The position numbers and the translations under genes are program-made. Shown here piece by piece: positions 5,113-64,000 of a stretch of 64,000 bases of DNA (the first letter of the stretch is position 1; every line of letters starts with the position of its first letter). The notes below the pieces were generated by a model that was not told where the DNA came from, searched no databases, and was given only the letters and a program-made list of their open reading frames with translations. The DNA comes from Oscillospiraceae bacterium (lineage in GTDB: Bacteria; Bacillota; Clostridia; Oscillospirales; CAG-272), in assembly GCA_015064395.1 (NCBI GenBank), contig SVSH01000012.1, positions 364-64,363 on the forward strand, in the 5' to 3' direction.

Positions 5113-7488
5113 ATGAAAAAAATGTACTGGATCGGAAACGCACATCTTGACCCTGTCTGGCTTTGGCGCTGGCAGGACGGATACTCGGAGGTACTGGCCA
5201 CCTTCCGCAGTGCCCTGGACCGCATGAAAGAGACCCCCGACTTCAAATTCACCAGCGCTTGCGCGGTGTATTATCAGTGGATCGAAAAGAGCGATCCCGA
5301 GATGTTCGCCGAAATTCAAGAGCGGGTCAAGGAGGGACGCTGGAGCATCACGGGCGGTTGGTTCCTACAGCCCGACTGTAACATCCCCACGGGCGAGAGC
5401 TTTGCCCGCCATACCCTGCTGTCCCAGCGCTATTTCAAGGATAAATTCGGCGTGACTGCCAAAAGCGGCTATAACGTAGACTCGTTTGGTCACAACGCCT
5501 CGCTTCCCATGATCCTGCGGGCGGGCGGCATGCAAAACTACGTTTATATGCGTCCGGGCCCTCACGAGAAGGCACAGGACTTCGATCTGTTCCGCTGGGA
5601 GAGCGCCGACGGCAGTGCCGTCACCGCCTTCCGCATCCACGATTGCTACAACCTGGACGAAAACCAGACCAACCTCGAGGACAAGATCCGTGAGGACATC
5701 AAAAAGGACGGTCAGCCCCGCATGGCCTTCTTTGGCGTCGGCAACCACGGCGGCGGTCCCACGGCCAGAACCATTGATTACATCAAGGGCAAGGGGGATC
5801 CCGACGACCTGTTCTCTACGGTAGACGAGTACTTCACCAACGTTGACAAAACCAATCTTCCCGTAGTCAAGGAGGAGCTGCAGCATCACGCTCGCGGCTG
5901 TTACAGCGCGACCTCTTACGTCAAGACGATGAACCGCCGTTGCGAGGAAAATCTGCTCACGGCCGAGCGCTTCTGCGTCATGGCCAACCGTCTCGTCGGT
6001 TATGCTTACCCCCGGAAAAAGCTGAATAAGGCTTGGAAAAACGTGCTGTTCAATCAGTTCCACGATATCCTGGCGGGCTGCTCGATCGAGAGCGCCTACA
6101 CCGATGCCTCTTACCTCTATGGTGAGACGATGAGCATCACCGATCAGGCCATCAACGGGGCTCTGCAGGCCATCTGCCGCAAGATCGACACGGGGGCTGG
6201 CTCGGAGACGGGCTACAAGCTGCTGGGCATGGAGCATTTCCTCGTTTGGGAGCACGAAAAGCTTGGTATGCCCATCGTGGTCTTCAACCAGCACGCCTTC
6301 CCCGTCAAAGATACTGTGACCGTCCGCGTCAGCGCCGCGCGCATCACGGATGACAAGGGGGTTGAGGTTCCCTTCCAAAACGTCCGAGGCGAGCACCTCA
6401 ACGGCAGCGATATTTACGTCGTTACCTTCCCGGTCGAGATCCCGGCCTTTGGCTATCGCGTCTACCGCGTATTCCCGCTGGGTGAGAGTCAAGCCGAGTT
6501 CCCCGCCCTCACCGCCACCGAGCACAGCCTGGAAAACGACAAGCTACGGGTGGAATTCGATCCTGCAAGTGGTGAGATCGCCCGCATTACGGACAAGGCA
6601 AGCGGACATATCCTTGCCGAGGGCGGCATGAGCACCGTTCTGACCGACGAGACCGATTGCGACACCTGGGCGCACGGTCACGACGATCTGGGCGAGGTCT
6701 GCGGACAGTTTGGCAATCCCACCTTTAAGGTTCTGACCTGCGGGCCCGTCCGCGCGACACTGCGCGTCACCACGACCTACGCCTCTTCTACCTTGAGCCG
6801 CGATTACACGCTGAAAGCAGGCAGTGACGAGTTGCTTGTACATGGTGAAGTGGACTTCAGAGAATGCCACAAGGCGCTCAAGTTCACCTTCCCCGCCAAG
6901 GACAACGTCGTATGCGACATACCCTTTGGCACCGTCACAAGAGCGCTTGGTAAGGGCGAGGAGCCCTTCTCCAAGTGGTTTGCGTCGGGTGGTCTTTGCG
7001 TCGCCAACACCAACAAATACAGCTACGACTCGACGCCCGATCAGCTCCGTCTGACCGTTCTGCGCGGCGCCATCTACGCCGACCACTACGGACAGCCCTA
7101 CCGCGACGAGGTCTGCCACTTTATGGACAGAGGTCCGCAGACGTTTGATTATTCCCTGTTTGCTTACAACGGTGCCTCCGACGCGCACCGCCGCGCAGCT
7201 CTGTTGCAGGCGCCCCTTCGCACCGTCAACGACACCTTCCACCACGGTCCCTTGGGCGAGTGCTTTGAGGGTATGAAGGCTCCCGCTGACAACGTCATCG
7301 TCACCGCCATCAAGCAGGCCGAGGACAGTGAGGCTATGGTCGTTCGTTATTTGGAGGCCGACGGACGGGCTTGTGACGACAGCATCACGCTGATGGGCAA
7401 GAACATTCCCGTCTGCCTGTCGCCTTATGCGATCGGCACGGTGGACGAGAGCGGAACGACGCTGAACCTGATGGAATGGGAGGCATAA
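5113..7488 (+). CDS. glycoside hydrolase family 38 alpha-mannosidase (cytoplasmic)
   Basis: Trimmed to ATG 5113 behind AAAGGAG. N-terminus MYWIGNAHLDPVWLWRWQDGY is typical of GH38 catalytic domains. About 790 aa, no signal peptide. Confidence 0.85.
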   Translation: MKKMYWIGNAHLDPVWLWRWQDGYSEVLATFRSALDRMKETPDFKFTSACAVYYQWIEKSDPEMFAEIQERVKEGRWSITGGWFLQPDCNIPTGESFARHTLLSQRYFKDKFGVTAKSGYNVDSFGHNASLPMILRAGGMQNYVYMRPGPHEKAQDFDLFRWESADGSAVTAFRIHDCYNLDENQTNLEDKIREDIKKDGQPRMAFFGVGNHGGGPTARTIDYIKGKGDPDDLFSTVDEYFTNVDKTNLPVVKEELQHHARGCYSATSYVKTMNRRCEENLLTAERFCVMANRLVGYAYPRKKLNKAWKNVLFNQFHDILAGCSIESAYTDASYLYGETMSITDQAINGALQAICRKIDTGAGSETGYKLLGMEHFLVWEHEKLGMPIVVFNQHAFPVKDTVTVRVSAARITDDKGVEVPFQNVRGEHLNGSDIYVVTFPVEIPAFGYRVYRVFPLGESQAEFPALTATEHSLENDKLRVEFDPASGEIARITDKASGHILAEGGMSTVLTDETDCDTWAHGHDDLGEVCGQFGNPTFKVLTCGPVRATLRVTTTYASSTLSRDYTLKAGSDELLVHGEVDFRECHKALKFTFPAKDNVVCDIPFGTVTRALGKGEEPFSKWFASGGLCVANTNKYSYDSTPDQLRLTVLRGAIYADHYGQPYRDEVCHFMDRGPQTFDYSLFAYNGASDAHRRAALLQAPLRTVNDTFHHGPLGECFEGMKAPADNVIVTAIKQAEDSEAMVVRYLEADGRACDDSITLMGKNIPVCLSPYAIGTVDESGTTLNLMEWEA

Positions 7489-51676: not shown

Positions 51677-53003
51677 ACTTCCCTTTCTTTTCCGGACTCG
51701 GCCAAATGCGCTCGAACTCCCGCTCCAGGACCTCCGAATGGAGCTCCTTTTCCTTCAAAATGCGTTTGAGGATCACGGTGCACTCGTCGGCTCTTGCCTG
51801 GCACTTGACAACGTCCTCGGCAAACGCCATACAGCTGGGCGCGCCGCAGGAGCCGCAATCAAGACCGGGCAATTTACCCGTCAGCTCTTCGATCTCGCAC
51901 ATCATACGCATCGCCGTTTTTCTGTCGGGTGAGAGCGAGCTGTAGGGATTGTACTCCACCTTCTTCTCGTGAAAGTACTGATCCGGGATCCAGTCGCTGG
52001 CCGGACGGTTGGGAGACACGGGCAGATAGCGCTTGAGCGATTGCAGTCGCGCCTGGGCGATGTAGGGGTTTGCCACCGTCATCGCGCCGCCGACGCATCC
52101 GCCGCTGCAGGCATTCAGCTCAACAAAATCCAGAGTGGTAATATCCGCGCTGTCGATACGATCCAGAACACGGATACAGTTTTCGATACCGTCTGCCGCC
52201 AGATAGCGGTCATTGAGTATCGCGGAGGATTCGCCACCCGTTGATGCCCAACCGATACCGACGATGCCGGCCTCGGTGGTCTCCAGGGGCTCCTCCTTGT
52301 ATTTGTTCATTTTCTCAAGTATTGCGAAATACACGTCCCGGACGGAGACCGTCGCAGAGATGTAATTTCTCTCTCCTGCAAAGTTGTTTTTAACGTAACT
52401 GACCTTGGCAGGACAGGGCGAGATAAAGATAATGCCAATGTCTTCGGGAGACAGCTCCGGATGCTCCTCCATCACCTTCTCTCTTGCCAACAGAGCGGCA
52501 ATGTCGATGGGAGGGAGGATGGGCATGATATTCTCGCACAAGTAGGGGTAATTGGTACTGATCAGTCTGGTAATGGTGGGGCAAGCCGAACTGATCACCG
52601 GCTTTTTGATGTTATCTCGATTGATATACTTGCGAGTATAGGCGCTCACAAGCTCTGCCGCGCAGGCAACCTCGAACACGTCGTCAAATCCCAGATCCAA
52701 AAGGCCCCGGATGATATAACCGATATTATCGAGATTGTTAAACTGTCCGTAGAAGGACGGTGCGGGGAGCGCGACAGTATATTTGTAATCATTCAGCACA
52801 GAGAGACTGTCGTGCGTGGCCCGTTTGGCCTTCGAGGAGCATACCTTGATACACTCGCCGCAGTCGATGCACCTGGCGGAATTGATCACCGCGTGCCCAT
52901 CGTGGATACGAATTGCTTCGGTCGGGCAACGCTTCAGGCAAGCCGTGCAGCCTTTACACTTTTCGATATCCAACGATACCGAATGCTTGTAATCTGCCTT
53001 CAT
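51657..53003 (-). CDS. sensory-type [FeFe] hydrogenase-like protein (2x[4Fe-4S] + H-cluster domain + C-terminal Cys motif)
   Basis: Start set at ATG 53003 behind GAGGT (53024 possible). CKGCTACLKRCP / CIDCGECIKVC; H-domain motifs SSACPT, SPCPAKVSY, ELNACSGGCVGG; C-terminal CGSCGAPSC. Confidence 0.75.
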   Translation of the reverse strand: MKADYKHSVSLDIEKCKGCTACLKRCPTEAIRIHDGHAVINSARCIDCGECIKVCSSKAKRATHDSLSVLNDYKYTVALPAPSFYGQFNNLDNIGYIIRGLLDLGFDDVFEVACAAELVSAYTRKYINRDNIKKPVISSACPTITRLISTNYPYLCENIMPILPPIDIAALLAREKVMEEHPELSPEDIGIIFISPCPAKVSYVKNNFAGERNYISATVSVRDVYFAILEKMNKYKEEPLETTEAGIVGIGWASTGGESSAILNDRYLAADGIENCIRVLDRIDSADITTLDFVELNACSGGCVGGAMTVANPYIAQARLQSLKRYLPVSPNRPASDWIPDQYFHEKKVEYNPYSSLSPDRKTAMRMMCEIEELTGKLPGLDCGSCGAPSCMAFAEDVVKCQARADECTVILKRILKEKELHSEVLEREFERIWPSPEKKGKCGDDHS

Positions 53004-53040
53004 ATGTACCTCGATCGCTTTCATTAATATTTCGGATGGT

Positions 53041-53463
53041 TCAGAGCAAAACCTTCATGGTGACGGTCGTTCCCTGCCCGACGACGGTATCGATATGCAA
53101 TTCATCCGTATACTTTTTCATATTCGGGAAGCCCATACCGGCACCAAAGCCGAGATTGCGGATGTTGTCCTTGGCAGTCGAGTAGCCTGCCTGCATGGCC
53201 AACTCCACGTTGGGAATACCGGGGCCCTTGTCGGACAGGATGATCACGATCTCCTCATCCGAGACAATGACGTCCGCCGTACCGCCGTTTGCGTGGATCA
53301 CCATATTGATCTCGCCTTCATACATGGCGATTGACACCTTACGTATGACCTCGGGATCATAGGAGAGCTGGCGCAGCTTTTTCTTGACCATGACCGACGC
53401 TTCGCCGGCGCTGGAAAAATCCGAGCCGTCGATATCGAAATGGAATTTCAAGACCTCTGCCAT
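53041..53463 (-). CDS. anti-sigma-type serine kinase-like ATPase (HATPase_c_2, SpoIIAB/RsbW-like)
   Basis: Trimmed to ATG 53463. LSDKGPGIPN...AMQAGYSTA...GFGAGMGFPNM. Confidence 0.7.
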   Translation of the reverse strand: MAEVLKFHFDIDGSDFSSAGEASVMVKKKLRQLSYDPEVIRKVSIAMYEGEINMVIHANGGTADVIVSDEEIVIILSDKGPGIPNVELAMQAGYSTAKDNIRNLGFGAGMGFPNMKKYTDELHIDTVVGQGTTVTMKVLL

Positions 53464-53464
53464 A

Positions 53465-53815
53465 TCAGCCCTCAAGGTGTCTGGACAGGCCGGCCAAGTA
53501 CAGAATGCCGCTTGCTTCAAAGGCACGCTTATCGGTGCACATCACGGCAATGCCGAACTCTTGGGCCAGCGCAACCATATCATCCGTGGGTTTTTTGCTT
53601 CTCACGAAGACGATGCAAACCATGTCCATCATATTCGCGGTGCGAATGACCTGGGGGTTTACCAGTCCCGTGATCAAAACGCCCTGGTCCTTGACGTATG
53701 CCAGCACGTCGCTCATCATATCGCTGCAGCAAGCAGACGACACCTCATGGGTCAGCGTGGATTCATCCGTCAAGATCTCGGCGTCAAGAAGATCTCTGAT
53801 CTCACTGATTTTCAT
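53465..53815 (-). CDS. DRTGG-domain protein
   Basis: Trimmed to ATG 53815 behind GGAG. SDMMSDVLAY...VLITGLVNPQVIRTA... Confidence 0.7.
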   Translation of the reverse strand: MKISEIRDLLDAEILTDESTLTHEVSSACCSDMMSDVLAYVKDQGVLITGLVNPQVIRTANMMDMVCIVFVRSKKPTDDMVALAQEFGIAVMCTDKRAFEASGILYLAGLSRHLEG

Positions 53816-53863
53816 ACTTTGTTCTCCAAAACACACGCGGACAAGCCGCAGAATCAAAGACGA

Positions 53864-54361
53864 TTATTTCTGATACTTTGCCAGAATACCGGCAACGTCA
53901 GCCTTGGTCAGACGACCATAGACCTCGCCGTTGACGGTCAGGACGGGAGCCAGACCGCAAGCGCCGATGCAGCGGGTCGCCTCCAGAGAATACTTGCCGT
54001 CAGGAGAGGTGCTGCCAACGGGCAGACCGAGTCTGTCGGAAAATTCCTGAATGATGTCGCCCGAGCCCTTAACGTAGCAAGCCGTACCCAAGCAAACGGC
54101 GACAGCAACCTCACCGTTGGGGTTGAACTTGAACTGCGCGTAGAAGGATGCAACACCGTAAATCTCTTCCAGCGGGGTTCCTGTCTTTTCGGCGATGATG
54201 CGCTGAACCTCGATGGGCAGATAGCCATAGATTTCCTGCGCTCCCTGAAGGATGGGCATCATTGCGCCCTTCACGCCGTCGTACTTCTCGATCACTGCGA
54301 GCAGCTGTTGTTCCTGCTCTGCCGTGCCGTGGAAATCGACCGTAGTCAATTTCTTCTTCAT
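53864..54361 (-). CDS. hydC: NuoE-like 2Fe-2S subunit of bifurcating hydrogenase (HydC)
   Basis: MPILQGAQEIYGYLP and CLGTACYVKG...CIGACGLAP motifs. Confidence 0.88.
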   Translation of the reverse strand: MKKKLTTVDFHGTAEQEQQLLAVIEKYDGVKGAMMPILQGAQEIYGYLPIEVQRIIAEKTGTPLEEIYGVASFYAQFKFNPNGEVAVAVCLGTACYVKGSGDIIQEFSDRLGLPVGSTSPDGKYSLEATRCIGACGLAPVLTVNGEVYGRLTKADVAGILAKYQK

Positions 54362-54450
54362 AGCTTTGAGACCTCCTCAATGATTGAATTTTTGCGTGGT
54401 AAATTCGAATTGTATCCGCCCGCTCTCGCGAGCGCATACGCATACACTGT

Positions 54451-54459
54451 ATTATAACA
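54451..54459 (-). promoter_or_regulatory. extended -10 element upstream of the hyd operon
   Basis: Minus strand TGtTATAAT about 90 nt upstream of the hydC ATG. Only a weak -35 (TGGACT). Confidence 0.35.
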
Positions 54460-54560
54460 TATAAATTTTGAAAAGTCCATAGGGAAAGCGCAAAAAAACA
54501 AGGAAATTTGTCAAAAATTTGTCAGAGGAATACCAAAGTGGAGACAAGTAGCCGAGAAAA

Positions 54561-54594
54561 CGAAAAAGAGGCGGTCATTCGCCTCTTTTTTCTT
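54561..54594. terminator. bidirectional terminator
   Basis: aaaaagaggcg gtcatt cgcctctttttt, directly after the stop of 54595..55482. Confidence 0.75.
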
Positions 54595-55482
54595 TTATTT
54601 TCTCAACATCTTTTCCAGCTGAGCGACCTTATTCTGCGAATACTCGTAGGCCCCGCGAAAATCCTCGATCTCGCGGCAGCAAATCTCCAGGTCGCAGAAA
54701 ATGGCGTACATCAGCACCTCACTCCGGCAGTCGTCGGAATTCAGCAGATGGAGCAGTTCTGCCCGGGCGGATGCAAAATCTCCCCGGCGCATGGTAAGCT
54801 CGGCCTCCAGGTGCGTGTGCCAACCGTCTCCGCCCGTCTCGCGCAAATACGCCTCTGTGCGGCGCATCTCCCCTGCCTCCAGCGCCTCGCGCGCCAGGAC
54901 GTAGCGGGCAAAGGGGTCGGTGCTCCCGGGAAAAGCCTCCTCGCCGTCGGCCAGCACGTCGGAGTACAGCATAGCGGACAGGCCGTGCATAAATCGAAAA
55001 TACAGCGCCGCCGTTTGACGGATCGCCGAGGTGTCATACAGCGTGCGCCCTGCGTATTCGAGTGCTTCGTCCAGCGCCTCGCTTGCGCGGTGCAACGAGC
55101 CGCGGTGAAACTCCTCCTTGGCAATGGACAGAGAGCACTCGGCCATGATCAGATAGATCTCGTCGTCGGCCTCCTGTCCGTCCTCGCGGCAAAGCTCCAG
55201 ACAGATGCGGGCATCGCCCGAGCGAAGAACGCGGCGGATGCTGTCGATGCGGTTCATTTTGCGCCAGATGCGGTCGTCGTCCCCCTCGGCCAAGAGAAAG
55301 CCTGCGGGAACCCCCAGGCGCTCTGCCAGATACCAAACGGTAGGGAGCGAAGGAAGCGCCGCGCCGTTTTCGACCCGACTGAGCATATTACGGGTGATCT
55401 GATCTCCCGCCAGATCCGACTGCGTCATATTCCGGTTCAGTCGAAGTCGCTTGATCTTTTCCCCAATATCCGTCTGTGGCAT
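54595..55482 (-). CDS. XRE-family HTH regulator with TPR-like C-terminal domain (RNPP-like architecture)
   Basis: ORF 54595..56130 trimmed to ATG 55482 behind GGGAGGGAG. IGEKIKRLRLNRNMTQSDLAGDQITRNMLSRVENG HTH, followed by about 220 aa of helical repeats. Confidence 0.75.
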   Translation of the reverse strand: MPQTDIGEKIKRLRLNRNMTQSDLAGDQITRNMLSRVENGAALPSLPTVWYLAERLGVPAGFLLAEGDDDRIWRKMNRIDSIRRVLRSGDARICLELCREDGQEADDEIYLIMAECSLSIAKEEFHRGSLHRASEALDEALEYAGRTLYDTSAIRQTAALYFRFMHGLSAMLYSDVLADGEEAFPGSTDPFARYVLAREALEAGEMRRTEAYLRETGGDGWHTHLEAELTMRRGDFASARAELLHLLNSDDCRSEVLMYAIFCDLEICCREIEDFRGAYEYSQNKVAQLEKMLRK

Positions 55483-55505
55483 AACGCTCCCTCCCGACAA
55501 AAAAA

Positions 55506-55585
55506 CATCCCTTTTGTCACCGTTCGTTTGGTAAATGGCATTTACCATTTGCGCTATTTTAGCACACCATGCGACAAAAGGGATG
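55506..55585. promoter_or_regulatory. 13-bp perfect inverted repeat pair enclosing a 7-bp palindrome in the regulator leader
   Basis: catcccttttgtc (55506..55518) and gacaaaagggatg (55573..55585). Inner ggtaaat-ggc-atttacc (55530..55546). Confidence 0.45.
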
Positions 55586-55622
55586 AATAAATTGTAAATT
55601 TTATTTAACATGCAAGAGCATT

Positions 55623-56585
55623 TTAAGCCAAAAACGGCAGCAACAGGCACATGACAGGCAGCGTCAAAAGGCAAGAGATGGTCGACAGGAGAACGACGTT
55701 TGCCGCCGTTTTCTGCCCTTCTCCCAGCCGTTCGGAAAAGGAAAGAACCATATTGGCCACGGGACAGCAGCAGATGATAAACAGCGCCTGCTTGAGGTAG
55801 CCCTCCACCGGCACAAAGTACAACGACGCAAAGGCGAACAGCGGAAATCCGATGTTTTTCACCGCGATCACCACGTATTGCTTGAGGTTGCAAAAAAGAT
55901 CCTTCGCATTGACCAGGGCCAATCGCATACCCAAAATGATCATACACAAGGGCGTCGCAAAGGTGCCCAGCGTTGCCACCATTGACAGCACGCCGTCGGG
56001 CAGCACAAAGGACAGACACAGCATGACAATGGCGATCATGGCCGAGACGGTATTGGGATTGAAGAACACCTTTTTGAGGCTGATATGCTTTTTGTCCCGG
56101 GTAATGATGGCCGAGACGACCGTCCAGCACATGGTGTTCATGATCAAGGAAAATAGGGCCGAGAACATAGCGACCTCGGGATGCTCCTGTCCCATAACGG
56201 CCTCCAGGATAGGCACACCGAAAAATCCGCTGTTGCCAAACGAGGCGGCAATGGCGAAAATGCGGTACTGCGCCGCCTCTTGCTTGTTGCGCAAAACGAA
56301 ATAGGAAAGCGCCAGGAAGGACGCCTGCAGGAAAAGGGCCAACAGAAAGATGAGCGCTCCGCGCTCGAGCATTTTTCCCAACGGCACGACACCGTCCCGC
56401 ACGAGAACCGTCGCCTTTTGGAAGGAATAGGCGGTCAGGCAGGGTTGGCTGACGTATAACAGCAGTGTGACGAAGACGGAAATCGAGCGCTCGTCATACT
56501 TTTTGAAGCGCATGAGCAGAAAGGCCGGCGCGGCAAAGGCCAGCATTTGCGCCACGGCAAAAAAGGTGATATAAAAGTTTCCCAT
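55623..56585 (-). CDS. AEC (auxin efflux carrier) family transporter
   Basis: 320 aa, about 10 TM, typical AEC N- and C-terminal repeat pattern. Confidence 0.85.
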   Translation of the reverse strand: MGNFYITFFAVAQMLAFAAPAFLLMRFKKYDERSISVFVTLLLYVSQPCLTAYSFQKATVLVRDGVVPLGKMLERGALIFLLALFLQASFLALSYFVLRNKQEAAQYRIFAIAASFGNSGFFGVPILEAVMGQEHPEVAMFSALFSLIMNTMCWTVVSAIITRDKKHISLKKVFFNPNTVSAMIAIVMLCLSFVLPDGVLSMVATLGTFATPLCMIILGMRLALVNAKDLFCNLKQYVVIAVKNIGFPLFAFASLYFVPVEGYLKQALFIICCCPVANMVLSFSERLGEGQKTAANVVLLSTISCLLTLPVMCLLLPFLA

Positions 56586-56597
56586 AGAGCGCCGTCG

Positions 56598-57608
56598 TCA
56601 AGCGTGAACGCCGCCCGACGCCTTCAGGATCGCATCGACCAGCGCCTGTGTCAGGAGAGCCTCCTCCATCATCCAGCGCGCCCGGCTGCCGTCGACGTCA
56701 TCGTAAAAATCAGCGATCTGAATGGCATGCGAGGAGCCGTAGCAGGCCTTCGCACCGCAATTCCGGGCTCGCTCCTCGTCACTGGCATGGACAGAGCGAC
56801 CATCGCGGTAAAAGATACAAGAGTCCCCTGCTCTGCTCTCCACCCGCGCGTTTTCGCACTTGATGGTGACGCGAATGTCCTCGTCCTCCATGTTGTTGAT
56901 GGAGAAGAAAAACAGCGCTCTCGTGCCATTTTCAAAATAGATCACGCCCTCGGCGGTGTCCTCTACCTCAGCCGTCGTCTCGCCATGGTGTGAGACGGTC
57001 GCCTTGACGTCCACCACGGGCGAGCCGGCAAAATAGCGAAGCAAATCCAGTGTATGAATGGCCTGATTGATGATAACGCCGCCACCTGCCGTCGCATAGC
57101 GGGATCTCCACTCGCCCGAGCGATAGTATGCCTCGTTACGGCACCAGCAGACCTCACCGTGAAGCGAGATCAATTTACCCATCTCGCCACTGTCCAGTGC
57201 CTCGCGGATGGCGCGGTTTTCGGCGTTGTAGCGGTTCTGGAAAATCACGCCGAGGCGCCGTCCCGTCTCGAGCGAGACCGCCTTCATGCGCTGAGCCGCC
57301 TCCAGGGAGGCATCCATGGGCTTTTCGCACAGCACGTCGACGCCGGCTCTCATACAGTCGATGGCCACCGGAGCGTGCAGATAGTGGGGCAGGCACAGAT
57401 GCACCGCATCGGGGTGCACCGCCTCCAGCATTTCGTGATAGTCGGTATAATAGGCACAGCCCGCCATAGCGGCACGGGAGCGGGCACGCTCCTCGATGAT
57501 GTCGCACACGGCGACAAGCTCGGTCTTTTCGTTTTCCATCAGGGCTTTGATGTGGTTGGGGGCGATCACGCCGCAGCCAATGATACATACACGGAATTTT
57601 TCAGACAT
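56598..57608 (-). CDS. Gfo/Idh/MocA family oxidoreductase
   Basis: Trimmed to ATG 57608. FRVCIIGCGVIAPNH Rossmann start and EKP motif (LCEKPM). Confidence 0.88.
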   Translation of the reverse strand: MSEKFRVCIIGCGVIAPNHIKALMENEKTELVAVCDIIEERARSRAAMAGCAYYTDYHEMLEAVHPDAVHLCLPHYLHAPVAIDCMRAGVDVLCEKPMDASLEAAQRMKAVSLETGRRLGVIFQNRYNAENRAIREALDSGEMGKLISLHGEVCWCRNEAYYRSGEWRSRYATAGGGVIINQAIHTLDLLRYFAGSPVVDVKATVSHHGETTAEVEDTAEGVIYFENGTRALFFFSINNMEDEDIRVTIKCENARVESRAGDSCIFYRDGRSVHASDEERARNCGAKACYGSSHAIQIADFYDDVDGSRARWMMEEALLTQALVDAILKASGGVHA

Positions 57609-57725
57609 ATGGGACACCTCGCGCATCGGTCATAACTTCACGCCGTCCGGGTAGACGGATATGATGGCTTATTATACCATACTGCGGGGCGAAAAGCAAG
57701 ATGATTTGACGAAAAAGAGTTTCTT

Positions 57726-58886
57726 TTAGTGGGCGTCGGCCGCAAGCGGAGCGTCCCCTTTGCCCTTCTCCGCCATAAGGCGAAGATACAAATCCTCGAT
57801 CTGTCTGACCATAGCGGGGGCTGTGAATTTTTCGTGATACAGGCGGAGCGCTCCTTGGGACAGCACGTCCCTTTGCGCTCGATCGGAATACAGGCACAGG
57901 AGCGTCGAGGCCAGTGCCTCGTCATCGTGCGGCGGGAACAAATAGCCGTTTTCCCCCGGGGTGACCATACGGGGATTTCCCCCGTAGTCAGAGGCGATGG
58001 CAGGCACGCCCGCGCTCATGCCCTCGGACAGGGACAGGCTGGAGGTCTCCGTTCCGAAGGAGGCATTGACGTTGACGTCCATCAAGGCATAATAGGGCGC
58101 CATGTCCTCGATAAAGCCGGTAAAAATGACGGTATCCCCCACCCCCAACGATTGCGCCAACGCGCGGTAACGGTCCAGCTGTGAGCCGTCGCCAAGCAGC
58201 AAAAAACGCATATTGGGGGCTACGCTTTTACACCGCGCCGCCGCTCGGATGACCGTTTCCTGCCCCTTATAATGCTCCAGTCTTGCCGGCATGCCCACCA
58301 CAAAATGCGAGCGCTCCAGCCCCCATTTTGCTCGCACGGCGTCCACCTCGCCCGCCTCGCACGTCCGCACGGGGAGCACGCCGTTGATGATGACCTCGAT
58401 CTGCTCCCCGTCCATGCCGAGCAGCAAAAGATTCTCCCGCGCGGCATCGGCCACGGCGATCACACGGTCGGAAAGGAACCGGCTTCCATAGCGAAAGGCC
58501 ACGCGAAACAGTCCGTTTTTCTGCCAGGCGCTCAAGGGAAAGACGCAGTGGCGCGTCTGAATACACACGGGAACGCGGCACACCCTCCCTGCAAGACGGG
58601 CCGTGAGTGCGGCGTGCGTGTGCAGAATATCGGGGCGCTCTTCCCGGATCACTCGCACGTATTCGCCCAGTGCTCCCCATTCCATCGAACGGTCCTGCCC
58701 GCACGCCACCGTTACGACACGGCAAGGCAACGAGCGAAACCGCTCGACGAGGCGACTGCCCCGGGGCAGTACGACAACGTAGGCAAACCGCTCTCTATCC
58801 CCACAGCACACGGCGTTATAAAGCAGTGTCCCCGCTCCCCCGATGTTGGTATCGGTCAGAATGTGCATCACTTTGATCTTGGACAT
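57726..58886 (-). CDS. family 4 glycosyltransferase
   Basis: Trimmed to ATG 58886. GGAGT near the N-terminus and C-terminal E..G....EAMS-like block (SLSEGMSAGVPAIASDYGGNP). Confidence 0.85.
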   Translation of the reverse strand: MSKIKVMHILTDTNIGGAGTLLYNAVCCGDRERFAYVVVLPRGSRLVERFRSLPCRVVTVACGQDRSMEWGALGEYVRVIREERPDILHTHAALTARLAGRVCRVPVCIQTRHCVFPLSAWQKNGLFRVAFRYGSRFLSDRVIAVADAARENLLLLGMDGEQIEVIINGVLPVRTCEAGEVDAVRAKWGLERSHFVVGMPARLEHYKGQETVIRAAARCKSVAPNMRFLLLGDGSQLDRYRALAQSLGVGDTVIFTGFIEDMAPYYALMDVNVNASFGTETSSLSLSEGMSAGVPAIASDYGGNPRMVTPGENGYLFPPHDDEALASTLLCLYSDRAQRDVLSQGALRLYHEKFTAPAMVRQIEDLYLRLMAEKGKGDAPLAADAH

Positions 58887-58963
58887 AAAAATAACCCCTC
58901 CCATTCGGTAAAACCAAGGCATAGTTTTTACCCAAACGGGCGGGGTTATTCGGATCGTGATAT

Positions 58964-60187
58964 TTACTTGGCGTGCTCGCAGGACATGACGTGGAGCTCG
59001 TAATACGCCTTTATCATATTGATGAATTTCATTGCCAGCTTGCCATCCTCCAACATACAGCGATAAATGTTATCGCCATGCTGAAGCTCCAGGTATCGGC
59101 CGGGACTGAAGGGCAACGAGGCAAAGGTAGCCGTAGACACCGATACGTCCAGCGCCTGGCCTCCGACCTCTCCCACAAGCAGCATATGATCGGGCGTCAG
59201 CGTAAGCCGGCCCTCGCCCGCATGCACAAACTTGTGTCGCTTGGGATCCACCACAAGGATCTGTGTTTGGGCGGACAGTTCCGTCTCCTCGCCGCTCTCG
59301 ATCCTTTGCTTTTGGGCATCGTAGATCATGCGGCTCCAGTCGGAAACGTAGCGAATCTCCTCGCCCACGTCACCGTTGTGATGCAAGAAGCCGTATTCGT
59401 CGCTCTTTTGCGTAAAACCGCATTCGGTACAGCAAATGACGCTCTCGTCCTTGACCTGCATGACAAACTCGCGCTTGCAGTGCGGACACATATACAATAC
59501 GTGTTGCAGTCCTTCGATCCGGTCGTTCTTTTGATATTTGACCAGTAGTTTTTCCTGCTCGCGGTAGGCGTCAAACAAAAGCGCCTCGTCCGTTTTTTGC
59601 TTGATCACCTCAACGTCGGTCTCGGCCAGCTCCTCCGCCGAGAAGAGCTTGTATACATCCATATAAGTACGTCCCGACCGCATGCCACGCGTCCATTTGG
59701 GCATGACAAAATAGCTGCCGCTGACGCGAGCAACATAAACGTCGGCCCGCAACCATTTCAAAAACGGATAGGTCGCTACGGGGATAGGTGTGGAGAGTCC
59801 GTCCTCACACATGAGCCCTGCCGGGTAGATCACCAGTGCCTCCCCGTCGTCAATGACGGATTTCATGGCGCGCATGTCCTTGAGCGTCGTCTGAAACTGC
59901 TGCTTGGGAATAACGCCTATCTTGGTCATAAACCACTTGACCGGCGAGGACTGATAAAAGGACTGGCTGATGACAAAATTGAGCGGGGTGCGCGTCATGC
60001 CGATCAGATTGACAAAATCGAGCGACGCCTGATGGTTGGCGATGACCACGTAAGGGCCCTTTTTGCCGCGGATCTCGTTGCGAAGGATCTTTCGCTTAAA
60101 AATGAGCTTCGATACGATCTGCGAGAGAAATCGCACGAAGCGATATACGATCATGCTTCTATTCGTTTTTCGATTGGCCTTTTTCAT
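58964..60187 (-). CDS. lysophospholipid (PlsC-type) acyltransferase with extended C-terminal domain
   Basis: NHQASLD (HX4D) and IYPAG motifs. The C-terminal part carries CPHC...CTEC. Confidence 0.8.
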   Translation of the reverse strand: MKKANRKTNRSMIVYRFVRFLSQIVSKLIFKRKILRNEIRGKKGPYVVIANHQASLDFVNLIGMTRTPLNFVISQSFYQSSPVKWFMTKIGVIPKQQFQTTLKDMRAMKSVIDDGEALVIYPAGLMCEDGLSTPIPVATYPFLKWLRADVYVARVSGSYFVMPKWTRGMRSGRTYMDVYKLFSAEELAETDVEVIKQKTDEALLFDAYREQEKLLVKYQKNDRIEGLQHVLYMCPHCKREFVMQVKDESVICCTECGFTQKSDEYGFLHHNGDVGEEIRYVSDWSRMIYDAQKQRIESGEETELSAQTQILVVDPKRHKFVHAGEGRLTLTPDHMLLVGEVGGQALDVSVSTATFASLPFSPGRYLELQHGDNIYRCMLEDGKLAMKFINMIKAYYELHVMSCEHAK

Positions 60188-60300
60188 GATAAACCCTCTG
60201 AGATCTTAAGAAAGTCTTAACCTGACGACTCATTATAACACAGTTTTCACAAAAAAGCAAAGGTTTTATCAAAATTTGTTAATAATTTTCGGAATGCTAC

Positions 60301-60326
60301 GAAAAAGCCCGGAAAAATCCGGGCTT
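60301..60326 (-). terminator. intrinsic terminator
   Basis: agcccgg/ccgggct stem, ttttc on the minus strand, after the stop at 60348. Confidence 0.65.
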
Positions 60327-60347
60327 TAGGGGTTACTCGGCGTCTGC

Positions 60348-60968
60348 CTACTCCTCCTCGCTCGCGGGGCGCGGCGGAATATCGGGCAGAGTTGCCAGTA
60401 TCGTTTCTTTGTTCGGTGAATCGGATTCCTCGACCGCGCGGTACAAATTCTCATACGCCTCGATCAGGTCGAGCTGAGAAAATCCGATGGAACGAAGCTG
60501 GCCGAGTATAAACTCCTTTTCCTCGTCCGTGGCTGTTGCATCCAAAGCATAGATCACACAACATTCCGTAACAGGATAGCGCTTCAGCAGGGCTGTTTTG
60601 GCGTTTTCCGTGCGGCACGATGAAAGATCCCAGTATTCATAAAATGCCTTGGTTCTTTCCGCACGATGCCATGCCTCCGAGTTCTTATTCTTACCCAACT
60701 GCTTTTCCTGTTCCGCTACGACCAGCCGTTCAAAGTCCTCCTTGAGCATGATCACGGGAACCTCCTCGAGCGCCGGCTCCTCCTCGGCGGAAATGGTCAA
60801 GCCCACCGTCAGAGTGATCAGCGCGATCATGGCGGCGGCCACCGCGATCATGCCCTTATGAAACCGCCGGGGACGGCGCCGGGATGTGGAAATAATGGTA
60901 GTAGCGGCCTCGGTGACGTAGTCGGGAGATACGCCGCCCAGTGCATCAAACAATCGCTCGTTTTTCAT
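60348..60968 (-). CDS. single-pass membrane protein, putative anti-sigma factor
   Basis: ATGA overlap with the sigma gene stop. One TM (MIAVAAAMIALITLTVGL). No zinc anti-sigma motif, so the call rests on position only. Confidence 0.5.
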   Translation of the reverse strand: MKNERLFDALGGVSPDYVTEAATTIISTSRRRPRRFHKGMIAVAAAMIALITLTVGLTISAEEEPALEEVPVIMLKEDFERLVVAEQEKQLGKNKNSEAWHRAERTKAFYEYWDLSSCRTENAKTALLKRYPVTECCVIYALDATATDEEKEFILGQLRSIGFSQLDLIEAYENLYRAVEESDSPNKETILATLPDIPPRPASEEE

Positions 60969-61522
60969 AGGTAAATGTCCTCCTTTTCCAGATATTGCTT
61001 GAGTTTCTTGCGCGTTCGGCAAAGAAGCACGTTCACGTGGCCCTCACTCATGCCAAAATCGGCGGCAATGCGCGAGACGTCCTCGGCAAACCAGTAGCGG
61101 CGCATAAAGATCACGCGCGTGCGCTTGGGCAATTCACCCAGAAAACGGTTGAGTGCGTCGCGCAACGCAATGTCGTCGGCGCTTGGTACGTCCCCCAGGT
61201 CACTGATGCACTCCTGCAATTCCTCCAGCACAAGCGGTACGTCCCCACCGCCCCGCTTGGCACTCTTGTTTTGCCGTAAGCGGTTAAGCGAGAGCTGACG
61301 CGTCAGCATGCCCATATAGCTTGCCAGTGATGCCGGCCGCCCGGGCGGTATGGTGTCCCACGCCTTGCGATAGGCATCGTTGACACATTCCTCGGCATCC
61401 TCCCTTGATGACAAAATGCGCTCGGCGATGGTGCGGCAGTAAGTACCGTATTTTTTCTGTGTTTCGGCGACCGCCGCCTCGTCTCGCGCCTCAAACATCG
61501 CGATGATGTTGACGTCGTCCAT
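60965..61522 (-). CDS. ECF-type RNA polymerase sigma-70 family factor
   Basis: Region 2 (DAEECVNDAYRKAW) and region 4 HTH (VSRIAADFGMSEGHVNVLLCRTRKKL). Strong RBS AAAGGAGGG. Confidence 0.88.
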   Translation of the reverse strand: MDDVNIIAMFEARDEAAVAETQKKYGTYCRTIAERILSSREDAEECVNDAYRKAWDTIPPGRPASLASYMGMLTRQLSLNRLRQNKSAKRGGGDVPLVLEELQECISDLGDVPSADDIALRDALNRFLGELPKRTRVIFMRRYWFAEDVSRIAADFGMSEGHVNVLLCRTRKKLKQYLEKEDIYL

Positions 61523-61602
61523 GGTATCCCTCCTTTGCCTGATGTAAAAGGCCTTTCACCTATAGAAACAACAAATCCTCTCCAAATCTTACACCAAAAT
61601 CC

Positions 61603-61640
61603 AAAAATGACCGCTAAAATTTTTTTCAGCGGTCATTTTT
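61603..61640. terminator. bidirectional terminator separating the paralog operon from the sigma operon
   Basis: aaaaatgaccgct ... agcggtcattttt. Confidence 0.7.
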
Positions 61641-61649
61641 CGCGGTGAA

Positions 61650-62174
61650 TTAGGGCTTGTAGCAATACAACTGCGAGGAGTAAAAGGTATACAGCGTCTG
61701 CTTGGGGTCATCCAGCACGACCACATAAAACATACTGCCTATGGGGCCGTAGCCGCGCGTTCCCTTGTCCTCGGGGATCGAGCCGTAGCTTTCAAAATAC
61801 AGCATATCGATGGTATAATGACCGCCGTATCCCGCTACTTTCCTGCGGCGCATGACCTCATCCTCGCCGACGCCGATAAGCTTATCCTCCACAACGTAGA
61901 AGCGTCCCGGGGCAATATAGCGCCACCCTTTTATGGTGGGCATAATAAACATCATCCCCCAAAGAATCGCCATTCCCACGTCCAGCAAAATGAGCGGCCC
62001 CCAGATGATCCAGACGTTCGGCATTTGCCAATACGCAAGCGCGGTCAACCCGACCAGAATGCCCTCCGTAAAGACAAGCAAGACGATCATCAAAATCAGT
62101 TCTATCTTCATAGACCGCAAAAACTGCTTCCGTAGCTTTTCCTTGGTCAGAATTCTTCTTTTTTCTTCTTCCAT
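61650..62174 (-). CDS. 2-TM paralog 3 (hypothetical)
   Basis: Start set at ATG 62174, 10 nt after GGAGG; ATG 62183 is only 1 nt from it. Same architecture and C-terminal FYVVVLDD...FYSSQLY block as 62177..62725 and 62729..63256. Confidence 0.6.
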   Translation of the reverse strand: MEEEKRRILTKEKLRKQFLRSMKIELILMIVLLVFTEGILVGLTALAYWQMPNVWIIWGPLILLDVGMAILWGMMFIMPTIKGWRYIAPGRFYVVEDKLIGVGEDEVMRRRKVAGYGGHYTIDMLYFESYGSIPEDKGTRGYGPIGSMFYVVVLDDPKQTLYTFYSSQLYCYKP

Positions 62175-62176
62175 TT

Positions 62177-62725
62177 TTAGCATTCCTCCAAACGGTAGTA
62201 TCTAGAATTATATATGTAAGCGATCTTATTTTTGCGGTTGTTCAAAACGACAAGGTAGAACAAATCTCCTGCCGTTGCATGGTCGCGCGTGCGTTTGGAT
62301 GCGATAAAGCGGCGCTTGCCCGCAAAGTGAATGTAGCGCGCTTCGTTTCGCCAAAACAGGAGCCAAAGCCAGTCCGCAAAGATGTAAAGAACATCCCATC
62401 CCGTCGGCTCGTCATCATCAATTCGTCTTGCATAATCCTGCTCGACATGAAATTCTCCGCGCACGATCAAGCGACGATTGCACAGTGTTCCAATCACGCC
62501 TTCGATAAAGAAGACATAAAACAGACCTACAGTAACAACAATGAAGAATCCCCACAAAGGCCATATGTTAGGCGACAGCGCATACACCCCACTCGTGATC
62601 AGAACCATAAGGGGAACAACAATACATCCGGCTATCGTGCACTGTATGATATTCAGTTTGCATTCATCAAGCAGGGTGTTCTGTACTCTTGCTTTGCTCA
62701 TATACTCGCGATTGTCCTGTGCCAT
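62177..62725 (-). CDS. 2-TM paralog 2 (hypothetical)
   Basis: RBS GGAGG lies inside the 3' end of the upstream paralog. C-terminal FYLVVLNNRKNKIAYIYNSRYYRLEE. Confidence 0.6.
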   Translation of the reverse strand: MAQDNREYMSKARVQNTLLDECKLNIIQCTIAGCIVVPLMVLITSGVYALSPNIWPLWGFFIVVTVGLFYVFFIEGVIGTLCNRRLIVRGEFHVEQDYARRIDDDEPTGWDVLYIFADWLWLLFWRNEARYIHFAGKRRFIASKRTRDHATAGDLFYLVVLNNRKNKIAYIYNSRYYRLEEC

Positions 62726-62728
62726 CGA

Positions 62729-63256
62729 TCATTCCTCCAACTGAAAATATTTTTTGTTATAGATTCGCGCCACGCTGTGTTTTCTATCATCTAATACGGC
62801 AAGGTAGAAAACGTCTCCCACCGCCGAATGCTCGCACACTCGTTTGGTGGTCACCACCCGCCCGTAGCGGCCGAAATGTACCGAGCTTTCATATTTGTAA
62901 CGGCTATTGCGAAAGTGTCGCTCGATGCCGCGTCTGCGCAGTGTTTCCTCCACACGGATATCGACCACGGTGTCCTCCTCGATGCGGTAGCGTCCGGTTC
63001 TCACCATATACCACCGTAAAGCGCCGGGCACGGTATAATATATGCCCTCCCCCAGCCAAACGGCAATCAGCAGCACCAAAATGCCCCATCGCCAGCCGCT
63101 TGATATATGCAAGAAAAGCAATCTTGACAAAAGCACCACCGTAAGCAGACTCAGTGCAAACGTGATGGTATAGATCAGCATCTGCCGTCCGGATGTGCGC
63201 AACAATTCGCTATGGATGGATTCTTTGGTCAGGCGTGTTCTTTGGTCCTCGGACAT
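62729..63256 (-). CDS. 2-TM paralog 1 (hypothetical)
   Basis: C-terminal FYLAVLDDRKHSVARIYNKKYFQLEE. Two TM helices near the N-terminus. Confidence 0.6.
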   Translation of the reverse strand: MSEDQRTRLTKESIHSELLRTSGRQMLIYTITFALSLLTVVLLSRLLFLHISSGWRWGILVLLIAVWLGEGIYYTVPGALRWYMVRTGRYRIEEDTVVDIRVEETLRRRGIERHFRNSRYKYESSVHFGRYGRVVTTKRVCEHSAVGDVFYLAVLDDRKHSVARIYNKKYFQLEE

Positions 63257-63382
63257 AACAGTTCTCCCTTGTTTTCTTTTGTGACTTTATTTTACCATCA
63301 TTTGACCGCTTTGTCAATAGGCAATTTTGATTTTTATAGGGATGCACAGTTTTAGAGCAAAAAATTATTGAAAATTAATAAA

Positions 63383-63656
63383 GCGGAGGAGCAACTGCTC
63401 CGCGGCATGGGAGTGGAGAGCCTTCCCCTTGAGGGGAAGGTGGATGCCCAACGGGGCAGACGGATGAGGTGTTGCACCTCGCACGAGCGCGGACGGGGTC
63501 GGGTTATAGAAGGGCAAGCTTTCACACAAAATTCCACTCCGCAGCATGAGGCTCGAAACAAAACTATCCTATGGCAATATTCCGTTTTGGCACAAAACGG
63601 AATATTGGGAGCGGCGCAACCGGACTGAAAGCGCTTGCTATATGGTATACGCCGCA
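63383..63656. other. hairpin-dense non-coding region (candidate structured RNA, class unknown)
   Basis: Perfect or near-perfect stems: gcggag/ctccgc (63383..63403), ccttcccc-ttga-ggggaagg (63421..63440), tgccc/gggca (63445..63458), gaggtg-ttg-cacctc (63466..63480), 14-bp caatattccgtttt/aaaacggaatattg (63575..63607). Long-range ggagtgga (63410..63417) pairs with tccactcc (63533..63540). Confidence 0.4.
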
Positions 63657-63823
63657 GGGGCTCAGAACCCCTGCGTGCGCCGTCAGTTAACGCTTTTCCC
63701 TGCCTCAATAAGCGCACGCTTACCAAATTGCCGTCAAGCGGCAATTTGAGGGGTTCTTCGCGTAAAATCACACGAGAATACAAAAAGAGAACGGCCTAAA
63801 GCCGTTCTCTTTTTGTATTCTGG
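63657..63823 (+). repeat. 167-nt tandem repeat unit 1: three-way-junction fold plus terminator
   Basis: Identical to 63834..64000. P1 agaacccct/aggggttct (63664..63672 with 63749..63757), P2 gcgtgcgc/gcgcacgc (63673..63680 with 63712..63719), P3 aaattgccg/cggcaattt (63725..63747), then the terminator. Confidence 0.9.
63776..63820. terminator. 20-bp perfect hairpin terminator inside repeat unit 1
   Basis: gaatacaaaaagagaacggc-ctaaa-gccgttctctttttgtattc. GC core flanked by A5/T5, so it can act in both directions. Confidence 0.75.
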
Positions 63824-63833
63824 AGCGGATTAC

Positions 63834-64000
63834 GGGGCTCAGAACCCCTGCGTGCGCCGTCAGTTAACGCTTTTCCCTGCCTCAATAAGCGCACGCTTAC
63901 CAAATTGCCGTCAAGCGGCAATTTGAGGGGTTCTTCGCGTAAAATCACACGAGAATACAAAAAGAGAACGGCCTAAAGCCGTTCTCTTTTTGTATTCTGG
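63834..64000 (+). repeat. 167-nt tandem repeat unit 2 (runs to the window edge)
   Basis: Base-for-base identical to 63657..63823. Separated by the 10-nt spacer agcggattac. Confidence 0.9.

Follow-up and report, generated by a model that had tools for sequence, protein, structure and literature searches.

The subject of this report is a tandem repeat that ends at the last letter of a 64,000-nt stretch of contig SVSH01000012.1 (assembly GCA_015064395.1, Oscillospiraceae bacterium); the whole stretch is called the window in the following. A prediction made from the letters alone had described the repeat as two copies of a three-way junction, each followed by a terminator behind a hairpin-dense leader, and had read them on the plus strand as tandem riboswitches or as a small RNA gene. 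Comparison with public contigs showed that the repeat is the 3′ flank of a tRNA operon, Asp-Phe-Gly, that lies on the minus strand.

The repeat and its place behind tRNA-Gly

Tandem Repeats Finder gave a single array at 63657-64000, with a period of 177, 1.9 copies and 100% matches. The two units delimited previously (63657..63823 and 63834..64000) are indeed 100% identical (direct repeat D1), whereas the 10 nt placed between them as a spacer are present but belong to the 177-nt period, being part of a copy of tRNA-Gly. The public contigs were chosen by their encoding of the window's last protein (62729-63256, minus strand), and contigs of relatives were also drawn via the response regulator described below, which has many homologues with 77-91% identity. 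One of these contigs, L001, matches window 52729-64000 over 11,272 nt with 100% identity and then runs on for 121 nt, which belong to a tRNA-Gly(GCC) gene on the minus strand of the window. The operon tRNA-Asp(GTC)-tRNA-Phe(GAA)-tRNA-Gly(GCC) is complete in L002 and L006, where it is transcribed toward the window, with Gly as the last gene, from a promoter TTGACA-17-TATAAT (12/12 matches, extended TG). Past the tRNAs follows a divergent operon for an OmpR-type response regulator and a histidine kinase, with its own upstream region of ~180 nt.

The reverse complement of window 63821-63840 is tRNA-Gly positions 57-76, GAGCCCCGTAATCCGCTCCA, and this 20-nt relic takes in the supposed 10-nt spacer together with the 7 nt that open the unit and the terminator's last T. 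The boundary of the unit is the 3′ end of tRNA-Gly, and the repeat therefore belongs to the minus-strand tRNA operon. Read in the tRNA sense, the order is tRNA-Gly, a terminator hairpin (T), the junction module (X), the relic (57-76), T, X, a relic of positions 57-63 only, and older hairpin modules; these are followed by a terminator-like hairpin (63383-63403), a promoter (63289-63317) and the genes of the next operon. The parts of the array are, from the tRNA outward:

63998..64000, minus strand: CCA 3′ end of the tRNA-Gly(GCC) gene, from the continuation of L001 into tRNA-Gly
63952..63998, unstranded: terminator hairpin T, tRNA-proximal copy, with A-tract, GC-rich 9-bp core and T-tract (inverted repeat I3)
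63834..63952, minus strand: module X, copy nearer the tRNA, a 119-nt three-way junction (P1, P3, P2), 125.4 bits with covariance model R1, homologues in L009, L015, L016 and L030
63821..63840, minus strand: relic, an exact 20-nt copy of tRNA-Gly 57-76 (exact-match scan) and junction of the tandem duplication
63775..63821, unstranded: terminator hairpin T, distal copy, identical to the proximal one (inverted repeat I2)
63657..63775, minus strand: module X, distal copy, identical to the proximal one (direct repeat D1), 125.4 bits with R1
63653..63675, minus strand: array end, a truncated relic within an extended perfect hairpin, CGCAGGGG-CTCAGAA-CCCCTGCG, that competes with P1

The truncated relic at 63657-63663 reads GAGCCCC (tRNA positions 57-63), and strains with one copy of the unit have the same array end as the window.

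The terminator hairpin and the junction module

The core of T is a GC-rich stem of 9 bp (GAGAACGGC/GCCGTTCTC), after which TTTTTGTATTCT comes next in the tRNA sense, and A-tract, stem and U-tract together make a 21-bp palindrome. What had been given as a perfect 20-bp terminator is thus a perfect hairpin, with arms of 21 bp (63775-63795 with 63801-63821, and in the second copy 63952-63972 with 63978-63998). Four stem sequences of T occur among the relatives, GAGAACGGC, GGATGGC, GCACATGGC and GATGGACACCC, each of them paired, and T has in its sequence the GC-rich stem, the U-tract and the compensated stem by which a Rho-independent terminator is recognized. T is of the bidirectional intrinsic-terminator type, and termination at it is predicted.

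The minimum-free-energy fold of X is a three-way junction on either strand (z = -5.3 to -6.7, mononucleotide shuffles). P1 joins 63664-63672 with 63749-63757 (9 bp), P2 joins 63673-63680 with 63712-63719 (8 bp, loop of 31 nt) and P3 joins 63724-63733 with 63739-63748. The junction drawn in the original prediction was right in P1, P2, the 31-nt loop and the P3 loop TCAAG, and needed correction in two places, P3 having 10 bp and not 9, and the joiner between P2 and P3 having 4 nt (TTAC) and not 5 (UUACC). The 3′ end of X is a look-alike of a tRNA T-arm, GGGG-TTCTGAG-CCCC, the T-arm of tRNA-Gly itself being GCGGG-TTCGAGC-CCCGT. The 5′ half of this look-alike doubles as the 3′ strand of P1, and P1 and the look-alike hairpin therefore compete.

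Five distinct sequences of X are known, that shared by the window, L001 and L002, and those of L009, L015, L030 and L016. Their pairs were counted on an alignment registered by hand; MAFFT misplaces the shortened P3 of L016. All five variants fold into the same junction on either strand, with z = -3.8 to -7.0. The flanking proteins of the window and of L009 share 70% identity; in X, the two loci agree in all three stems and in the P2-P3 joiner and differ in the loops, and past the relic their sequences do not align until the promoter region of the downstream gene. P2 changes from GCGTGCGC/GCGCACGC to GTTTGCGC/GCGCAAAC in L016 by two double changes, both compensated; a single A-T pair of P3 is C-G in L015 and L030, and in L016 the entire P3 stem is swapped to AAAAGCGC/GCGCTTTT. 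The P2 loop varies in sequence and keeps a length of 31-32 nt. The exceptions to pairing are one C.T mismatch in P1 of L030 and one G.T in P1 of L016, the latter being the sole wobble that is informative about the strand and legal only on the tRNA-sense strand. The same junction is thus found in at least four other lineages, with compensatory changes in some of the stems.

A covariance model (R1) built from X scores all known copies at 86-129 bits, and over ~170 kb (the 64-kb window, the other loci and the tyrT region of Escherichia coli) its matches were confined to the flanks of tRNA-Gly. Since R1 found only the known copies behind tRNA-Gly, X is bound to its locus and is not dispersed, which speaks against a unit scattered over unrelated loci, an outcome that had been envisaged for it. 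Scans with the exact pattern of the X core gave no match in viral contigs and none in species-representative genomes, and in metagenome contigs only the L009 contig, which was already known.

Several other identities of X were tried and rejected. As to a degenerate tRNA gene, ARAGORN reported nothing in the window, the Rfam tRNA model misses X, and no 5′ acceptor strand was seen by eye. A promoter for X was not found on either strand in a promoter scan. The open reading frames across the region (63352-63783 on the minus strand and 63368-63628 on the plus strand) have no Pfam match, and differences in loop length among the homologues break the frames. Class C group II introns insert after terminators, and a remnant of a group II intron was therefore considered; an Rfam intron match is absent.

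Copy number in the relatives

The number of units differs among the relatives: none in L020, L023 and L025, one in L002, L006, L009, L015 and L016, and at least two in the window, L001, L003 and L030. L002 and L006, which are 99.6-99.8% identical to the window, have a single unit with small terminator differences of their own. The duplication is no artefact of assembly, a possibility that had been raised, since two units or part of a second appear in three independent assemblies (the window, L001 and L003, the last having at least 1.43 units), and the array does not run on past the edge of the window, as had been suggested, L001 showing that it stops at two copies.

In L009, tRNA-Gly is followed by T1, X, a 19-nt relic, T2 (a diverged paralogue of T1), a short module and an older relic, GGGGTTCGAGTCCCGTACCGCG. 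In L015 the order is T1, X, relic, T2, an inverted and diverged copy of the tRNA 3′ end, hairpins, a promoter and tRNA-Cys, and in L016 it is T, X and then GAGCCCC only. L030 has T1, X, a 20-nt relic, a hybrid terminator whose left arm is that of T2 and whose right arm is that of T1, and an identical X at which the contig ends. In L023 and L025, T2 stands immediately after the tRNA, without X, and L020 also has no X. Exact 57-76 relics lie 153-157 nt past the CCA in L001, L009 (19 nt) and L030, and the relic of L015 keeps 16 exact nt of 57-76 at +155.

Contigs L003, L005, L017 and L021 end inside tRNA-Gly or the unit, and short-read assemblers break at such repeats; the repeat thus explains why several assemblies are broken here. 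The host belongs to an uncultured Clostridia lineage, the homologues being labelled as metagenome-assembled genomes of "Clostridia bacterium" or "Oscillospiraceae bacterium". It is absent from the set of species-representative genomes, in which both the X-core pattern and a pattern for the flanking 175-aa protein gave 0 matches. The lineage is therefore poorly sampled, as the empty results in the representative and viral sets indicate.

The spacer between tRNA-Phe and tRNA-Gly is CCAATCT in L001 and CATAT in L002, despite a flanking protein that is 100% identical, and the window, L009, L015 and L030 between them show every one of the four combinations of terminator type with X type. The differing spacers and the reassorted types suggest recombination between lineages within the tRNA cluster.

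A tail of this kind was also seen behind another tRNA gene. In L015 (4500-5010, minus strand), a terminator and a module of two hairpins come after tRNA-Cys(GCA), and 126 nt past the CCA the gene's own positions 57-76 recur as an exact 20-nt copy; L023 and L020 have the tRNA-Cys tail in decayed form. Within this lineage, tRNA-Gly is thus not the only tRNA gene with such a tail.

In L015 (~5300-5420) and L023 (~1180-1275), a diverged copy of the tRNA-Gly 3′ end lies beside T2 in inverted orientation, which makes a palindrome of ~100 nt, and in L009 (~300-420) the homologous piece of the tRNA-Gly 3′ end has the direct orientation. The two orientations imply an inversion across the palindromic terminator.

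The plus-strand reading

The reading given originally was that of two riboswitches in series, or a small RNA gene with an aptamer and a terminator, on the plus strand behind the leader, controlling a gene past the end of the window. On that strand the junction does precede the terminator hairpin, twice in series as in the tandem glycine and thiamine pyrophosphate (TPP) riboswitches, its fold is stable (z = -5.3), and such an RNA would include 20 nt complementary to the tRNA-Gly 3′ end. Next on the plus strand, however, are tRNA-Gly, tRNA-Phe and tRNA-Asp in antisense, and the response-regulator/kinase operon, the gene that might have been regulated, comes only after these three antisense genes. 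A link between aptamer and gene also failed to appear in the relatives: X is missing from L020, L023 and L025, where the tRNAs and the response-regulator operon are both retained, and in L002, L006, L009, L015 and L016, which likewise keep both, the module is single. The alternative pairing proposed between P1 and the terminator arms (agaac/gttct) is possible only with the GAGAACGGC type of terminator and is not conserved, L009 and L030 having GGATGGC; read on the plus strand, the informative wobble of L016 becomes an A.C mismatch; and no promoter-like site was found on that strand by the promoter scan. That the element matches no known RNA family, as had been stated, was confirmed with Rfam on the whole window, in which nothing reached the gathering score, and a permissive scan of the region gave only hairpin matches at chance level (MIR8008, ncS025, SpF25). 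Compared with the tandem riboswitches, the unit of the window thus has no regulated plus-strand gene, no conserved gene linkage and no known aptamer class, and close relatives differ in its copy number (0 to 2). The data do not support the riboswitch reading, X is not a ligand-sensing leader, and a plus-strand regulatory RNA of either kind is highly improbable. A small structured RNA with a terminator, the second idea of the original prediction, is conceivable as such. A false riboswitch candidate can thereby be removed.

Origin of the duplication

The junction of the duplication in the window has X-type sequence (TTCT) to the left of GAGCCCC and tRNA-type sequence (GTAATCC) to its right. These mixed flanks place the exchange inside the 7 nt that are common to the T-arm and the look-alike, which match at 13 of 14 positions, flanks counted. 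An ancestral single unit would thus have been duplicated by unequal recombination or by template switching during replication, through an exchange between the real T-arm of tRNA-Gly (GGGTTCGAGCCCC) and its look-alike at the end of X (GGGGTTCTGAGCCCC), with the junction within GAGCCCC. The units of the window are identical to each other and differ by small changes in T from the single unit of L002, which is 99.8% identical otherwise, and this indicates that the duplication is recent. In L030 the same kind of event may have taken place with the junction in the loop of the terminator hairpin. Where other relatives have lost a unit, the tRNA 3′ end would have recombined with its 20-nt copy; what L023 and L025 lack is precisely the unit bounded by the tRNA 3′ end and the relic. 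The junctions appear to vary, and all of them lie at hairpin apices or short repeats, which would fit unequal homologous or microhomology recombination, or template switching, and not a single site-specific crossover.

The last point bears on a different explanation, namely that the unit is the relic of an attachment site or an attP-only mini-element, with positions 57-76 as its core and T and X as its arms, moved at the T-loop by a tyrosine recombinase encoded elsewhere. Integration into a tRNA gene classically leaves a direct repeat of the gene's 3′ part that begins in the T-loop, and ~175 bp is within the size range of attP. The insert is flanked by the 20-nt repeat of positions 57-76, L015 (occupied) and L023 (empty) differ by exactly one repeat-flanked unit, the relic at tRNA-Cys of L015 is independent and has the same 57-76 boundary, the look-alike CGCAGGGG-TTCTGAG-CCCCTGCG resembles a symmetric core site, and T types and X types have been reassorted among lineages. 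The direct repeat from T-loop to tRNA end, the polymorphism between occupied and empty sites, and the stacking of relics of different ages are also what is seen with attL/attR relics and cis-mobilizable elements (CIMEs). In contrast to these, the insert is only ~155 bp, holds no gene and has no integrase nearby, its junctions seem to lie at no fixed point, and what follows the relic (T2) is paralogous to what follows the tRNA (T1), as local duplication predicts. No recombinase family of Pfam was found in 29 scanned open reading frames of the window or in the gene lists of L001, L002, L015, L016, L023 and L030. X with the 20-nt core is absent from the phage, plasmid and viral-contig collections, and no attP partner was found there: a BLAST search with tRNA-Gly, T and X against phages and plasmids matched the tRNA part alone, and the 20-nt relic, with or without a 3′ GAA, is absent from the viral contigs. 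X occurs at one locus only, the overlap regions differ (TTCTGAG and TTCGAGC), and the two duplication junctions, that of the window in the T-loop and that of L030 in the loop of the terminator, point to general recombination, with the reservation that L030 could be a chimera. An origin by integration is quite improbable.

Likeness to the tyrT repeat of E. coli

In E. coli (NC_000913.3, region 1285500-1288000), rttR and tpr lie after tyrT and tyrV. The tyrT/tyrV array there is 178 bp x 3.1, and its units end in AATCCTTCCCCCACCACCA, which is tRNA-Tyr 58-76, 156-159 nt past each CCA. The Rfam model of the RNA, RF00391 (RtT), has as its consensus an outer helix around two hairpins and then a tail ending in ...CCACCA, and as a positive control it gave four matches of 133-137 bits on the E. 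coli region. RtT is reported to be released from the tyrT primary transcript in the course of tRNA processing and to be linked to the stringent and stress responses (PMC4986893, PMC3318445, bioRxiv 10.1101/2024.07.17.603846).

The Clostridial repeat resembles that of E. coli in several features. Both stand immediately downstream of a tRNA gene and in its sense, with a period of 177 bp here and 178 bp in E. coli; each unit repeats the tRNA 3′ end exactly from a point in the T-loop onward (57-76 here, 58-76 in E. coli), this copy lying 153-157 nt from the CCA here and 156-159 nt there, in sequences that are otherwise unrelated; and in both, an outer helix closes a two-hairpin junction that is followed by a tRNA-like CCA tail. 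The copy number of E. coli tyrT changes through unequal recombination, and such a change is inferred here from the unit counts of the relatives.

There are also clear differences. RF00391, with a threshold of 45 bits, gave no match with E <= 10 in window 63200-64000 and none with E <= 1 in L009, L015, L016 and L030, and R1 conversely gave no match in the E. coli tyrT region. A strong intrinsic terminator right after each CCA is found only here, whereas the E. coli tyrT transcript is terminated by Rho inside the repeats. The outer helix of RtT uses the relic itself, whereas here the 3′ strand of P1 belongs to the look-alike just 5′ of the relic. A counterpart of the tpr reading frame is absent, indels in the loops breaking every frame. 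The hosts differ, uncultured Clostridia here and E. coli for RtT, which is not known outside the Gammaproteobacteria. On its sequence, the Clostridial unit is built like the tyrT repeat and is not a member of RtT.

The decades-old and unexplained tyrT/RtT repeat of E. coli thus gains an independent counterpart in another phylum, which adds comparative data that E. coli lacks, namely empty, single and double sites and covarying stems. Should the shared features (the relic start at 57/58, the spacing of ~155 nt and the three-way junction) reflect mechanism and not coincidence, this locus would make the mechanism testable.

What the repeat may do

The locus is a tail repeat of the tRNA operon, likely an analogue of RtT made by unequal recombination, in which the terminators would insulate the next operon. 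Each added unit would place an extra terminator between the consensus promoter of the tRNAs and a co-oriented operon that has its own promoter, and the repeated terminators probably insulate that operon in the manner of tandem terminators. The rrnB T1/T2 terminators are alike in their repeated hairpins of A-tract, GC stem and U-tract, in the strong promoter of a stable RNA and in the co-oriented operon that comes next; here, unlike there, the predicted terminators arose by duplication of a block that includes a conserved junction as well as tRNA sequence. Transcription would reach X only through terminator read-through, and X would be, by analogy with E. coli RtT, a structured by-product RNA with a tRNA-like 3′ tail, its stems being kept either by selection on the structure or by hairpin-templated mutation. 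That X has a role of its own is unlikely.

A number of points weigh against this account of insulation and unequal recombination. T is not listed by a simple, generic terminator scan, which we think is due to the pairing of its U-tract with its A-tract, and termination at T and read-through into X are deduced only from sequence. The perfectly kept stems and the constant 31-32-nt P2 loop suggest a function beyond insulation. The covariation in X is qualitative, coming from five sequences only, and template-switch mutation templated by hairpins can yield compensated stems without selection. The recurrence of the 57/58 boundary, at Gly, Cys and E. coli Tyr, is not predicted by random unequal crossing-over. 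Finally, the hybrid junction of L030 could be a chimera of short-read assembly.

In another reading, X and its tRNA-like tail form a functional RNA comparable to RtT. This RNA would be made from the tRNA operon transcript or from read-through, be trimmed by the tRNA 3′-end machinery and act in trans or in cis, for instance in tRNA processing or in the stringent response, with its dose set by the copy number. Its anatomy is that of E. coli RtT in position, in length (177 and 178 nt), in the relic of the tRNA 3′ end and in the three-way topology of the Rfam consensus; its stems are kept or compensated while the loops drift and the P2 loop stays at 31-32 nt; and the G.T in P1 of L016 favours the tRNA-sense strand. 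Unlike the situation in E. coli, however, a strong intrinsic terminator stands between the tRNA and every X, no promoter precedes X, close relatives that keep the operon (L020, L023 and L025) are without X, the RtT model of Rfam has no match, and the function of RtT itself is unresolved. Taken together, a functional RNA of this type is rather doubtful.

A broader and still speculative idea, unlikely to hold, is that tRNA-linked units of ~155-180 nt, with a copy of positions 57/58-76 behind a three-way junction, are a recurrent, convergent class of elements with a common mechanism. Its members may be those at tRNA-Gly and tRNA-Cys in Clostridia and at tRNA-Tyr in E. coli, and the mechanism may be a regulatory RNA matured by the tRNA 3′-end machinery or an attP-like mini-module moved by a T-loop recombinase. 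If this were true, the Clostridial X would be the first representative outside the proteobacteria.

The leader and the downstream operon

The stretch between the array and the next operon, in the tRNA sense, holds the following features:

63575..63656, minus strand: older decayed module, with hairpin A (63611-63616 with 63650-63655) and hairpin B (inverted repeat I6)
63383..63574, minus strand: lineage-specific hairpin-dense stretch that folds, with a terminator-like hairpin (63383-63403) and then a T-rich run in the tRNA sense
63289..63317, minus strand: sigma-70 promoter TTGACA-17-TAAAAT with extended TG, from a promoter scan on the identical sequence of L002

The description of 63383-63656 (274 nt) as a hairpin-dense leader was upheld, with z = -4.6 (plus strand) and -3.8 (minus strand); none of 200 dinucleotide-preserving shuffles folded as well. 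Within it, 63575..63656 is 72-74% identical to a module in L023 and L025 that consists of a relic and two hairpins. Hairpin B has arms of 15 bp (63575-63589 and 63593-63607), and the stem of hairpin A is altered yet still paired in L023 and L025 (GACGACG/CGTCGTC). For 63383..63574, no homologue was found in other lineages beyond a short CCCATGCCGCG motif, and a minus-strand match to ncS025 within it is below threshold (29.7 bits, gathering score 46). At 63375-63470, also on the minus strand, three successive perfect hairpins with a T-rich end lie just upstream of the operon promoter, in this species only; this could be a small RNA or merely another terminator.

The promoter region at 63289..63317 is kept in L009, L010, L011, L012 and L025. 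Behind it, the minus-strand operon at 60348-63256 encodes three tandem paralogues of ~175-182 aa, an extracytoplasmic function (ECF) sigma factor (60965-61522) and a 224-aa protein, and this arrangement behind the TTGACA-17-TAAAAT promoter is conserved in all relatives. The three paralogues have no Pfam family, and the 175-aa protein has 13 homologous clusters among 5.8 billion proteins; a protein-pattern scan for it in the species-representative genomes gave 0 matches.

Additional observations

Public gene calls have been laid over the tRNA genes and the promoter region (L025 398-922 and L002 6471-6614), among them a 174-aa "gene" that overlaps tRNA-Gly, tRNA-Phe and tRNA-Asp, and such calls are almost certainly spurious. 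In L015 (10167-10279, 61.3 bits) and L016 (9462-9583, 55.8 bits), both on the minus strand, flavin mononucleotide (FMN) riboswitch matches below the gathering score of 66.2 lie upstream of the S component of an energy-coupling factor (ECF) transporter.

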